From positions 12,286 through 76,285 of the forward strand of contig JAHFKJ010000002.1 of assembly GCA_023245415.1 (NCBI GenBank): a stretch of 64,000 nucleotides of DNA, given 5' to 3'. This document shows, piece after piece, positions 17,071-23,273 of this stretch. This stretch comes from Candidatus Gottesmanbacteria bacterium (GTDB lineage Bacteria; Patescibacteriota; Microgenomatia; UBA10105). The notes under the pieces were generated by a model. That model was given only the letters and a program-made list of their open reading frames with translations. It was not told where the DNA came from and ran no database searches. The position numbers and the translations under genes are program-made. Position 1 is the first letter of the stretch. Every line of letters begins with the position of its first letter.

Positions 17071-17125
17071 GTTGAATTTGATATTCAGATATTAAGATAT
17101 GAAGATACTTAATCCTAATATACTT

Positions 17126-19469: not shown

Positions 19470-20519
19470 ATGTTAGATTTTATTTTTGGATTTTTTTCTC
19501 ATGATTTAGCAATTGATTTAGGTACTGCCAATACATTGGTTGCACTGCGCGGTAAAGGAATTGTAGTTCGTGAACCCTCAGTAGTTGCCAGACACAAAAA
19601 AACAAAAAAAATCTTGGCGGTTGGATCAGAGGCTAAGAAGATGATAGGTAAAACGCCAGCTTCGATTGAAGCTATACGGCCACTGCGGCATGGGGTTATT
19701 TCAGATTTTGATGCCACAAGTGCTATGCTTACCTATTATATAAAACAGGTTCATGAAAAACCGCAAAAATTGATACCCAATATCCCACGTCCCAAAGTCA
19801 TCATTGGAATTCCTTCAGGTGTTACGGAAGTAGAACGCAGAGCAGTTCAGGAAGCAGCACTTGACGCCGGAGCCAGAACTGCATATTTAATCGAAGAGCC
19901 GATGGCCGCAGCAATCGGGGCCGGTTTACCTGTTCAGGAATCAAAAGGCTCACTGATAGTGGATATTGGTGGAGGAACTACCGAAATGGCAGTCATTTCT
20001 ATAGGTGGAATAGTCGTTAACCGTTCGGTTCGAGTTGCCGGAGACGAAATGGATCAAGCGATTATTTCTTTTTCCCGGCTCAAACACTCACTGCTTTTAG
20101 GTGAACAGACTGCTGAAGATGTTAAAATAGCCATAGGTTCCGCATTTCAAACCGATGAAAGTCCGCAAACCGTCGTTCGCGGGCGCGATCTGGAAACAGG
20201 TTTACCCAAGTCGATTCGCTTAAATTCGACAGAAATTCGGGAGGCTTTAGCAGACGTGGTTAATCAAATTATATCAGAATTGAAAGATGTAATAGAGGAG
20301 TCTCCGCCGGAGTTTATCGGTGATATCCTGGAACAGGGAATTACGCTGGCGGGTGGGGGATCTCTGCTTCGGGGTATAGATAAACTCATGGCTCAGGAGG
20401 TCAAAATACCCGTATGGAGAAGTGAAGATCCGCAAACTGCAGTTGTCAGAGGAGCCCTAAAATTGTTTGAGGATGATACGCTGCTTCAGCGGGTGAGAGT
20501 CACGGGAGGATTAAAATAA
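19470..20519 (+). CDS. mreB: rod-shape-determining protein MreB
   Basis: Carries DLGTANT, LIEEPMAAAIGAG and DIGGGTTE actin-fold motifs. Confidence 0.85.
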   Translation: MLDFIFGFFSHDLAIDLGTANTLVALRGKGIVVREPSVVARHKKTKKILAVGSEAKKMIGKTPASIEAIRPLRHGVISDFDATSAMLTYYIKQVHEKPQKLIPNIPRPKVIIGIPSGVTEVERRAVQEAALDAGARTAYLIEEPMAAAIGAGLPVQESKGSLIVDIGGGTTEMAVISIGGIVVNRSVRVAGDEMDQAIISFSRLKHSLLLGEQTAEDVKIAIGSAFQTDESPQTVVRGRDLETGLPKSIRLNSTEIREALADVVNQIISELKDVIEESPPEFIGDILEQGITLAGGGSLLRGIDKLMAQEVKIPVWRSEDPQTAVVRGALKLFEDDTLLQRVRVTGGLK

Positions 20520-20690
20520 GATTAAGTATAGAGATTAGCACTTAGATCTTAGAATTTAGAGCTTATAACTTAATGATTAGTTATTAGAGCTTAGATTTTA
20601 GTACTTAGATCTTAGCACATAGAATTTAGCTTTTAGATCTTAGAACTTAGAGATTAAAATTTAGAGATTAGAGATTAGAACTGATGATGA
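20520..20690. repeat. degenerate tandem minisatellite of TTAGA(G/T)CTTAGA-type units
   Basis: tagagattagcacttagatcttagaatttagagcttat...tagatcttagaacttagagattaaaatttagagattagagattagaac. Related short motifs occur at 32096-32140 and 34235-34262. Confidence 0.6.
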
Positions 20691-20691
20691 A

Positions 20692-21330
20692 TTGAGTAAG
20701 AAGTGTACTTTCACTGCAATATTCATGAATAATAAAAACTTTCATTTTTTGGCTACCTGGGTGTCGCGGATTTTCTCGCCTCTAATAATAATTCCCGGAT
20801 ATCTTCTATATGAAATCAAAAGACTAATAATTGGTTTTCCACAGCAGCTTCTAGTATTCCTAGTTATTTTTGGGTTTGGAGTCGTACCAATTTGCATTGC
20901 GCTGATAGTACTTAAAAAAACTCATCATATTACAGACTGGAATATGACTGAAAGAAAAGAAAGACATTTGTTCAATGGAATCACTTTATTCTTTGGATTT
21001 ATTTGCCTAATTTTACTTTCTTTATTTTTTCGAAGAATATTCACTATCGAAATATTTATTATTTTAATTTGGATGACCTTATTTACAGGAACAACGTTTT
21101 TTTGGAAAATTTCTGCCCACACGATCGTTATTACCTATTTGGCTAAAATAGTCGTAGATTCAAATGCTGGAAATTTTGGCTGGATTTACGGTCTGATTCC
21201 ACTCGTAGCCTGGTCACGTGTTTATAATAAGAAACATACATGGGAACAAGTCATTGGTGGAGTAATATTTGCATTTATCACACTGCATGTAACCTATCTA
21301 ATTTTTCATTTTTCAATTATTGATATCTAA
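20692..21330 (+). CDS. integral membrane protein, hypothetical
   Basis: 212 aa with about 6 TM helices. Confidence 0.4.
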   Translation: MSKKCTFTAIFMNNKNFHFLATWVSRIFSPLIIIPGYLLYEIKRLIIGFPQQLLVFLVIFGFGVVPICIALIVLKKTHHITDWNMTERKERHLFNGITLFFGFICLILLSLFFRRIFTIEIFIILIWMTLFTGTTFFWKISAHTIVITYLAKIVVDSNAGNFGWIYGLIPLVAWSRVYNKKHTWEQVIGGVIFAFITLHVTYLIFHFSIIDI

Positions 21331-21455: not shown

Positions 21456-23273
21456 ATGATAAAACTCGGCAAAGCGTTTTCGGATAATGTCATTTTGTCG
21501 AAAACCCGGCAGAATAATCCGTCCAAAAAAATATTCGGTTGGGGGATACGGTTGACTTTATTTTATGTTTTTCTGGTTGGCAGTTTCTTTTTACTCACGA
21601 TACGTCTATTTCACTTAACCTTAGTTGAGGGTAAAGATCACCGGGAGTTGTCTGAAGACAACAGAATAAAAACAACCGTAATACACGCTCCTAGAGGTAT
21701 TATTTTTGATCGCCGGGGCATACAGCTCGTTGTCAATATTCCTGCGTACAGGATTAACATCTGTCAGCATGGTCAGAATTGTAAAATGGAATTTAAGACC
21801 CGGGATGACTGGAAAAAAGTTAAAGATACATACCCTCCGGTTTCACTTGAACCGGATTTTTTGCGTGAGTATTCCAGACCCTACTCGTTAGCTCATATAT
21901 TAGGCTATCTCAATGAAATCACAGCCGGGGAAATAAACAATCCCTTCTACGAGTATCAAAGCTATTTGTTAGGCGACCGTTTAGGCAGAATGGGACTTGA
22001 ACAGGAGTATGAAAAAATACTGCGGGGCATTGACGGGAAAGAATTAAATGAAGTTGATTCGCGCGGCCAAGTTATAAGAACACTGGGCAAAGTAGATCCT
22101 GACATGGGAAAGAATTTATATCTGACGCTGGATGCAGATTTGCAGCAGGTAGCTTATGATGCGATGGGTGAGTATGTGGGAGCAGTTATTGTATCAAAAC
22201 CAAAAACCGGAGAAATTCTGGCTTTAGTTTCCACGCCTTCGTTTAATCCCAATAAAATTCACGAAGGCTTAACTGCTCTGCAGTACAAACAGTTGGTAAA
22301 TAGCGCTGACAAGCCTCTTTATAATCGCGCGATTTCAGGAGTGTATCCGCCCGGTTCCACATTTAAAATAATTGCGGCTGCGGGAGCTCTGGAGTCGGGA
22401 AAAATGAAAAGTTCAACTATAGTTGAAGATACGGGGAAATTGACTATAGGCGACTTTAGTTTTAGCAACTGGCTATATACCCAGTATGGTCAGACAGACG
22501 GCCGGGTAAATATGGTGAAGGGAATAGCCAGGAGTAACGATATTTATTTTTATAAATTGGGAGAGAATGTAGGTGTAAAGACGATCGCCGAGTGGGGTAA
22601 GACGTTTGGTATTGGAAGAAAAAGTGGCATTGATTTATTTAATGAATCTGAAGGCGTTATGCCAGATCCCGAGTGGCGAAAAAAGGTCAGGAATGAAGAA
22701 TGGTATTTGGGTGATACGTATCATCTAGCTATTGGTCAGGGGGATTTGGTAGTGACGCCACTTCAAGTTAATTTATGGACTGCTACGATCGCAAATGGCG
22801 GAAAATTATGCAGACCGCATATGTTAAGTCAAAAAAATGATATTAAAAGTGCTCGAATTGAGTGTCAAGATTTACGCCTCAAGTCAGATACAATAGATAT
22901 CATTACCGAGGGTATGCGCCGGGTATGTTTTTCCGGAAGCGAAGTTGAATATTCTGGGACCGCATACCCGTTTTTTAACTTTACTATTAGCAAAGAAGTT
23001 CTCAACAAGAGCCGTGGAGAAACGCAAAAAAAACGTCTGCCTGTCGCTTGTAAAACCGGTACTGCTGAAATCGGCGATCCGCAAAATCGGACTCACGCAT
23101 GGTTCACCGCTTTCGCTCCGCTAAAGAGCGATATTACAAAAAATAGTAGCGTTTCAGCTATTTTAGGCGAGCCGGAAATTGCAGTCACAGTTTTGGTGGA
23201 AAAGGGTGGTGAAGGATCGGCAGTTGCGGCACCGGTGGCAAAAAAGATTTTTGAAGAATGGTTCAAACGTTAA
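21456..23273 (+). CDS. mrdA: penicillin-binding protein 2 (peptidoglycan D,D-transpeptidase)
   Basis: N-terminal TM and PBP dimerisation domain, then a transpeptidase domain with STFK, SND and KTGT motifs. Downstream of mreB. Confidence 0.8.
   Translation: MIKLGKAFSDNVILSKTRQNNPSKKIFGWGIRLTLFYVFLVGSFFLLTIRLFHLTLVEGKDHRELSEDNRIKTTVIHAPRGIIFDRRGIQLVVNIPAYRINICQHGQNCKMEFKTRDDWKKVKDTYPPVSLEPDFLREYSRPYSLAHILGYLNEITAGEINNPFYEYQSYLLGDRLGRMGLEQEYEKILRGIDGKELNEVDSRGQVIRTLGKVDPDMGKNLYLTLDADLQQVAYDAMGEYVGAVIVSKPKTGEILALVSTPSFNPNKIHEGLTALQYKQLVNSADKPLYNRAISGVYPPGSTFKIIAAAGALESGKMKSSTIVEDTGKLTIGDFSFSNWLYTQYGQTDGRVNMVKGIARSNDIYFYKLGENVGVKTIAEWGKTFGIGRKSGIDLFNESEGVMPDPEWRKKVRNEEWYLGDTYHLAIGQGDLVVTPLQVNLWTATIANGGKLCRPHMLSQKNDIKSARIECQDLRLKSDTIDIITEGMRRVCFSGSEVEYSGTAYPFFNFTISKEVLNKSRGETQKKRLPVACKTGTAEIGDPQNRTHAWFTAFAPLKSDITKNSSVSAILGEPEIAVTVLVEKGGEGSAVAAPVAKKIFEEWFKR

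Follow-up and report, generated by a model that had tools for sequence, protein, structure and literature searches.

The repeat tract that follows mreB is probably a one-armed, greatly expanded member of a repeat family with a TTAG core, a family whose units also make up the arms around a small gene encoding a PF05635 protein and whose core would be the motif of a dedicated reader. The window, that is, the whole stretch of DNA that was analyzed, comprises 64,000 nucleotides of a draft metagenome-assembled genome (1.55 Mb, 38.7% G+C, 60 contigs, 96% complete) from a CPR bacterium of the Microgenomates type. Positions refer to the window unless a contig of this genome (G000) is named. The nearest MreB loci are labeled Patescibacteria, Blackburnbacteria, Daviesbacteria, or Levyibacteria. 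Whole-genome gene calls were made with our own simple ORF heuristic.

Results

Anatomy of the mreB tract

The tract and its neighbors are:

19470–20519, plus strand: mreB, 349 aa (Pfam MreB_Mbl, E = 7.6e-134)
20521–20681, plus strand: one-directional TTAG heptamer array, 23 units, consensus TTAGAAC
20692–21330, plus strand: polytopic membrane protein, 212 aa, TTG start (from the ORF list; conserved after mreB in relatives)
21456–23273, plus strand: PBP2-type transpeptidase (Pfam Transpeptidase and PBP_dimer; synteny in relatives)

A preliminary description had proposed that a degenerate tandem array fills the spacer behind mreB, to be checked with Tandem Repeats Finder (TRF), and this was borne out. 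TRF calls the tract at 20529–20682 with periods of 7, 14, and 28 (scores 66–92), and 23 degenerate heptamers run in register from 20521, making up nearly all of the 172-nt spacer. The array starts 1 nt past the mreB stop codon (20517–20519) and ends 10 nt upstream of the TTG start of the next gene (20692), a start that is backed by the homolog in locus L001. TTAG-N3-TTAG-N3-TTAG occurs 10 times in the window, nine times in the tract and once at 32112–32129 on the minus strand, against a mean of 0.00 in 100 dinucleotide-preserving shuffles. The tract is the longest TTAG-family array of the whole genome. It has no Rfam match at E ≤ 1, and a promoter-like match inside it (20632–20660, 9 of 12 positions) is too weak to rely on. 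The 212-aa membrane protein has no Pfam match; its homologs follow mreB in loci L001, L005, and L151–L158, and a metagenome search with it found no relatives, whereas the MreB query did return relatives. Two further assemblies carry an identical tract. Since identity is 100% over 3.8–4.8 kb, the three tract-bearing assemblies represent one strain and carry no information on length polymorphism.

The units are not degenerate at random. Mismatches to the consensus at positions 1–7 number 3, 0, 1, 4, 6, 14, and 12 (chi-square p = 3e-5), so that TTAG is nearly invariant and positions 6–7 are variable. The tract was also suspected of being prone to slippage, but the 23 units comprise 16 different sequences and the 22 neighboring pairs include a single identical one, which makes it a poor slippage substrate now. 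Its 7-nt units stand head to tail as in STRR-like repeats, without the identical slipping units of phase-variable contingency repeats. A young slippage array would be expected to show runs of identical units and an old neutral array to have lost its core as fast as its other positions, which argues for a recognized motif over fresh slippage; what is observed is in keeping with an old array in which selection or a templated process maintains the TTAG(A) core. The same data bear on a plain microsatellite, generated in place by 7-nt polymerase slippage, decaying neutrally, and unrelated to any PF05635 cassette. Heptamer simple repeats are over-represented in many bacteria, and slippage over the polymerase footprint has been put forward as a cause, as quoted in PMC4692102. 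The 14- and 28-nt higher-order structure detected by TRF means that block duplication did take place in the tract, and near-perfect arrays exist elsewhere in the genome (e.g., AGTGAGA x8 on contig C52). Neutral decay, however, predicts equal mismatches at all seven positions. This, together with the cassette evidence given below, renders the microsatellite explanation very unlikely.

The tract folds weakly (z −1.5 sense, −3.1 antisense) and has no CTAA array nearby, and thus no inverted partner arm with which a long two-armed stem could be built. There is no ORF within it and no PF05635 gene beside it, the nearest such genes being on other contigs; its link to the cassettes consequently comes from common units and not from anatomy. 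The proposal that the spacer might hold a transcription terminator, or an insulator between mreB and the next gene, would suit an array at a gene 3′ end with stop codons in all six frames, but it did not hold up: a scan of 20520–20690 found no intrinsic terminator (G+C-rich stem plus T-run), the sense-strand fold is weak, the tract lies within a conserved gene string whose members overlap in relatives, and other unit families contain no stop codons. We regard this explanation as highly improbable. The six-frame stops follow from the unit itself, since TTAG at period 7 places TAG in the three forward frames and TAA in the three reverse frames and cannot be accommodated in coding sequence. All 16 TTAG arrays of the genome are intergenic, an outcome forced by these stops, so the absence of TTAG arrays from genes carries no functional information. 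A six-frame stop barrier was considered as a function in its own right and rejected; the unit families AAGACAG, AAGCGTT, and AAGATATT have no stop codons, and stops are therefore not the common denominator of the arrays.

A genome-wide system of period-7 repeats

Three further short-period arrays lie in the window:

17080–17112, plus strand: four copies of GATATTAA, period 8 (TRF); TATC/GATA family, as in the arms of the C59 PF05635 cassette
32100–32137, minus strand: short TTAG array of 4–5 units, including TTAGAGA and TTAGGGA (in-phase triplet match)
34205–34262, plus strand: mixed period-7 array (TRF row 34205–34234; lag-7 region C28 46493–46542)

The second and third coincide with the two sites, 32096–32140 and 34235–34262, at which similar strings had been noticed before; both are real and intergenic. 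The minus-strand array lies between the stop of a 117-aa ORF and the ATG of a 338-aa ORF, both genes being on the minus strand. In the mixed array, which occupies a divergent spacer, AAGCGTT/TAGGGTA-type units run in phase into two to three TTAG-like units; units of this AAGCGTT/TAGGGTA family also build the arms of the C43 cassette.

The idea that the motif recurs at gene boundaries as a signal is thus upheld, on a larger scale than the window, and the tract cannot be treated as a local feature: it is one member of a genome-wide TTAG family and of a period-7 system tied to PF05635 cassettes and to hairpins resembling rRNA intervening sequences (IVSs). TRF returns 140 rows of period 7 for the whole genome, compared with 52 of period 6 and 107 of period 8, and windows of high self-identity number 749 at lag 7, 226 at lag 6, and 187 at lag 8. 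Seven is the dominant short tandem period, with 62–70 regions that fall into several unit families, including TTAGNNN (~13 loci), AAGTGAN (~16), GCTACAA, and AAGCGTT. As with STRR-like repeats, many dispersed arrays and several unit families are found in one genome. Clustering by consensus unit is too crude for such degenerate families and assigned only 24 of 70 period-7 regions; by the same crude consensus assignment, ~40 of the 70 match none of the four period-7 cassette units.

Many period-7 loci consist of a forward array followed by an inverted one and form long imperfect hairpins (C13, C45, C52, and C22; z −3.5 to −9.3). Other TTAG loci (C13, C45, C40, C38, and C47) do have the two inverted arms, and all seven TTAG hairpins, of which six belong to this genome and one to L001, show the polarity of the cassette, TTAG first and CTAA second. 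The outer unit GATTAG is common to several TTAG arrays. With respect to flanking genes the arrays lie on either strand, about half being antisense.

Several individual arrays deserve mention. At G000:C52:11423-11480, near a contig end, an inverted array of GTCACTT type comes after a perfect AGTGAGA x8 array (fold z ~−6.8), and the locus has the look of an AAGTGAN member that is young and has expanded recently. Period-7 arrays of varied units occur inside long open frames (C8:15265-17406, C8:3111-5120, C22:8064-9224, and C57:4520-7423) and may be in-frame protein insertions or artefacts of the crude ORF calls. The resemblance of the C47 array to telomere-like TTAGGG was treated as coincidence.

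Repeat-armed PF05635 cassettes

The genome has seven PF05635 genes. Six of them lie between inverted arrays of short period, and the unit differs from cassette to cassette:

C60 cassette (G000:C60:21590-22108, just downstream of rpmG): arm TTAGNNN, period 7
C22 cassette: arm AAGTGAN, period 7
C43 cassette: arm AAGCGTT / AAGGGTG, period 7
C38 cassette: arm GCTACAA, period 7
C59 cassette: arm AAGATAYT, period 8
C7 cassette (G000:C7:7208-7516): arm of AATAAATACC type, period ~10

By the same TRF criterion, inverted-related arrays stand on both sides of 2 of 508 small control ORFs (80–200 aa). A scan of 4-mers by period, done before any cassette was known, had ranked TATC/GATA (period 8), TTAG/CTAA (period 7), and GTGA/TCAC (period 7) at the top; the same three families build the arms of the cassettes on C59, C60, and C22, respectively. 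That the most abundant periodic families are all cassette arms, that the TTAG core builds the arms of a conserved cassette as well as ~12 other loci, and that several arrays have an outer GATTAG unit in common all count against an unrelated microsatellite. On C43, a 90-aa ORF that is not PF05635 (G000:C43:28191-28463, minus strand) lies within inverted TAATATCC arrays of period 8 (6.9 and 2.2 copies); this ORF may represent another kind of passenger gene, or it may be a spurious reading frame within a hairpin.

The TTAG-armed C60 cassette is flanked by rpmG (Pfam Ribosomal_L33, E = 3.9e-16) and a 162-aa gene. The gene inside the arms, at G000:C60:21684-22052, has a product of 122 aa that matches PF05635 (E = 6.8e-35) and, weakly, the bAvd-like family PF22296; the closest solved structure is 2gsc, a PF05635 protein of Xanthomonas campestris with five chains. 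The left arm has four exact units in common with the mreB tract (GATTAGC, ACTTAGA, GATTAGA, and GCTTAGA), and GATTAGC is the first unit of both. At G000:C60:21589-21594 (L093 ~1090–1095) the TAG stop of rpmG is itself the first TTAG unit of the arm (GAT TAG); rpmG orthologs end in GAT TAA before the arm.

Homologs of the C60 protein are present in 49 of 87 genomes of the order, and inverted tandem arrays flank the gene in 28–29 of 30 fetched loci. Over 48 loci, arm periods are 7 (42 arms), 8 (24), and 9 (7), with a median of 3.9 units. Seven relatives of other genera have cassettes at the rpmG site that keep CTTAG-core arms at 47–55% protein identity, with a spacing of 7 or 8 nt and unrelated loops; their proteins form a well-supported clade (100/98). 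Retention of TTAG in these seven could also reflect shared descent and concerted evolution instead of recognition. Locus L114 lies at the rpmG site, yet its protein groups with the GTTACTT clade, and its inner arm (GTTACTTGG, then AAAAC) is that of L122, which is at another site, indicating that gene and arms move together. Proteins are not strictly tied to one type of arm, as arms have been switched in L110 (rpmG site, GCAGTNG arms) and L125 (CAGCTAT arms; sisters in the same clade and site have AAGACAG). A TGCAAAA array after mreB in L003 predicted a matching cassette in the same genome, and this was only loosely the case: that genome contains L143, with ATGCA-type arms, and the best TGCAAAA match, L145, is in another genome.

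The density of arrays was compared with PF05635 copy number in samples of 184–200 kb per genome, picked regardless of cassette positions (G000 was used whole). The values, as period-7 plus period-8 regions per 100 kb, are:

G064: 8 PF05635 genes over cut-off; 9.2
G000 (this genome): 7; 6.8
G038: 1 over cut-off (3 matches); 4.5
G007: 3 over cut-off (4 matches); 2.0
G024: none; 2.5
G039: none over cut-off; 0.5
G008: none over cut-off; 0.5
G021: none over cut-off; 0.0

The rank correlation (Spearman 0.83, n = 8, among genomes that are related and not independent) is supportive of an association between arrays and PF05635 genes, and no more than supportive. Locus L282 (G064:C8:1-1100) holds a long collagen-like (Gly-X-Y)n coding repeat whose strong lag-9 signal is unrelated to cassette arrays.

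Hairpins in the 16S rRNA gene

Repeat-armed hairpins that lack a gene are found in the 16S rRNA gene of the window:

35271–36945: 16S rRNA gene (Rfam)
36089–36192, plus strand: gene-less repeat-armed hairpin in the 16S gene, ~10-nt AATAAATACC-type units followed by inverted units
36543–36642, plus strand: second, identical copy elsewhere in the same gene

Each insert of ~100 nt folds strongly (−29.2 kcal/mol, z −5.2), and a stretch of 23 nt is identical between the 16S hairpin and an arm of the C7 PF05635 cassette (blastn). Pieces related to this unit family were also seen on C43, C41, C36, and C2. Some rRNA inserts of CPR bacteria contain PF05635 ORFs, and short ORF-less inserts of unknown nature have been described as well (PMC11270868). 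Taken with the 16S hairpins and their C7 match, these published inserts indicate that repeat-armed hairpins and rRNA intervening sequences are the same kind of object here. The genome also encodes RNase III. Between the 16S rRNA gene and a 154-aa ORF (37221–37685), Rfam reports a match to group-II-intron D1-D4 at 37130–37221, which scores 37 bits where the gathering score is 35.

The mreB junction in relatives

The gene string wzy-like (opposite strand)/mreB/membrane protein/PBP2 is conserved, and the state of the junction behind mreB varies among relatives (MreB identity in parentheses):

L151, L152 (81%): mreB and the next gene overlap
L153 (80%): 35-nt spacer with two TTAG-like units
L001 (72%): 135-nt spacer with TTAGAGT x4, a loop, and an inverted array
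L003 (70%): TGCAAAA array in the spacer
L004 (70%): membrane-protein gene missing; mreB and PBP2 28 nt apart, no repeats
L157, L158 (69–70%): spacer hairpins of unrelated units
L005, L154, L156, L160 (67–70%): genes abut

Because mreB and the next gene overlap in the nearest relatives, the tract is an insertion that was later expanded, and the variation in spacer state shows that the junction was colonized repeatedly by different families. The junction was originally free of repeats, which means that the array was no original component of mreB regulation; for the operon, the tract is probably a tolerated passenger.

Discussion

A history for the tract and candidate readers of its core

The family membership, the anatomy of the cassettes, the insertion, and the constraint on the core documented above suggest a history for the tract, with the arms of the C60 cassette as the reference copy of the TTAG family. 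Repeat-armed cassettes and their gene-less hairpin derivatives colonize gene spacers in this CPR lineage, and they are found in the 16S rRNA gene too. One TTAG element would have entered the originally tight junction of mreB and the membrane-protein gene; the inserted element would have kept, or lost, one arm, and the remaining arm could then have reached 23 units by duplication of multi-unit blocks. The tract is most likely co-transcribed in a message with mreB, the membrane protein, and PBP2. With the TTAG core held constant as the other positions drifted, the core is a putative recognition motif for a trans-acting factor.

If that factor were a ring protein of the HutP or TRAP kind, the tract would be a cis-regulatory RNA of the mreB operon, with (UUAGANN)n bound so as to tune translation or stability of the membrane-protein and PBP2 message. 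HutP reads UAG-N4 repeats and TRAP reads GAG/UAG repeats; in work reportedly published by Kumarevel and coworkers in 2005, the UAG triplets recognized by HutP recur every 7 nt. The UAG spacing of the tract equals this 7-nt period, the array stops 10 nt short of a start codon, and TAACTGA heptamers just 5′ of start codons have been proposed as translational regulators in Beggiatoaceae (PMC4679880). Against these points, HutP (PF09021) had no match in this 96%-complete genome although a control genome was positive, the nearest relatives manage without the tract and with overlapping genes, about half of the TTAG arrays are antisense to their flanking genes, and the tract matches nothing in Rfam. 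Operon-specific regulation of this kind is quite unlikely.

The indifference of TTAG arrays to strand would fit a reader of double-stranded DNA, with heptads bound side by side as nucleoid-organizing, partition, or global repressor sites. The ribbon-helix-helix omega repressor of plasmid pSM19035 coats 7-bp WATCACW heptads, which may be in either orientation, direct or inverted. The arrays described here likewise occur in either orientation and in direct or inverted sets, and the second family of the genome (TATCACT/TGTCACT units) resembles the omega heptad. On duplex DNA, however, the switches between 7- and 8-bp spacing in orthologous TTAG arms would rotate neighboring sites; inverted arms around a transcribed gene and hairpins within 16S rRNA point to stems at the level of RNA, and no candidate protein was identified for a landing pad on duplex DNA. 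We consider such a pad unlikely.

For the preferred reading, in which the tract derives from the cassette family, the best candidate reader would be the four-helix-bundle protein of the TTAG-armed cassette, and it probably acts on single-stranded RNA or DNA. A single-strand reader is inferred, as opposed to one of phased duplex sites, because orthologous arms tolerate a spacing of 7 or 8 nt. PF05635 proteins are 23S-rRNA intervening-sequence proteins with an Avd-like four-helix bundle. The fold family is that of Avd (bAvd, PDB 4DWL), as seen in the weak PF22296 match, and homology has been described (PMC10053308). By analogy with Avd, a nucleic-acid-binding pentamer, a repeat-reading role for PF05635 proteins is plausible. 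An identity as the Avd of a diversity-generating retroelement was ruled out: a search for reverse transcriptase (PF00078) gave no match in the 96%-complete genome, which means that these are not retroelement Avd genes. The genome has no template/variable repeat pairs, and unlike Avd genes, the PF05635 genes here stand alone.

A stronger form of this reading can be advanced tentatively, and we think it doubtful that all of it will hold: each PF05635 protein may act as a multimer that recognizes its own unit by sequence, with roughly one unit bound per subunit, and gene and arms may form a self-propagating module that seeds hairpins and solo arrays, those in rRNA included, and is the source of the heptamer excess (STRR and similar repeats) seen in many bacterial phyla. 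If such a module exists, the TTAG arrays would be the binding-site set of one small protein. Were the encoded protein to read its own repeat, the origin of heptamer repeats would be explained, and PF05635 proteins would gain a function outside diversity-generating retroelements. With six repeat-armed PF05635 cassettes that each have their own unit, matching dispersed arrays, and IVS-like hairpins in the 16S gene, the genome is a compact test case in which an origin for bacterial 7-base repeats, long unexplained, can be put to the test.

Relation to known repeats

ORF-bearing rRNA intervening sequences with an S23p/23S_rRNA_IVP gene are known from Coxiella (PMC4990558) and among the CPR rRNA inserts (PMC11270868). 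The cassettes resemble them in having a PF05635 gene within a long inverted-repeat stem, and the 16S gene here contains gene-less hairpins of the same build. They differ in standing between protein-coding genes and in having stems of tandem 7–10-nt units. The tract, being a single arm, cannot form an IVS stem.

A literature search found no paper that links heptamer repeats with PF05635, S23p, or Avd-type genes. Heptamer repeats have been known in bacteria since 1990, when the STRR sequences were described, and their genome-wide over-representation was shown in 2007; we know of no established source or function for them. STRR (short tandemly repeated repetitive) heptanucleotide sequences, reportedly described by Mazel and coworkers in 1990 from heterocystous cyanobacteria and also mentioned in PMC4692102, are like the present repeats in their tandem 7-nt units, in having several unrelated families per genome, and in forming dozens of dispersed, mostly intergenic arrays, some as inverted pairs. 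The host here is, by contrast, a 1.5-Mb CPR bacterium, its units have a core of 4–5 nt with 2–3 free positions and are not near-perfect copies, and, unlike those of STRRs, the unit families match the arms of resident PF05635 cassettes.

The GGGAATC repeats of Xanthomonas and the GGGGA(C/T)T repeats of Nostoc (Rehm et al. 2015, PMC4692102) also form intergenic period-7 arrays on either strand, near gene ends and sometimes as inverted pairs, and they occupy the same spacers in sister species with wide variation in length and sequence (PMC4692102). Interest in those repeats centered on quadruplex formation by their G-rich units, and no connection with a cassette was made (PMC4692102); TTAGANN cannot form G-quadruplexes. 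TAACTGA direct repeats occur in marine Beggiatoaceae, cyanobacteria, and Bacteroidetes (MacGregor 2015, PMC4679880). They are heptamers in 2–6 (up to 43) copies just 5′ of start codons, including those of ribosomal-protein operons, and a trans-acting binder was proposed but not found (PMC4679880). TAACTGA is one exact heptamer, almost always in direct orientation; the TTAG family has a degenerate core, occurs both as hairpins and as solo arrays, and has a candidate partner gene in its reference copy.
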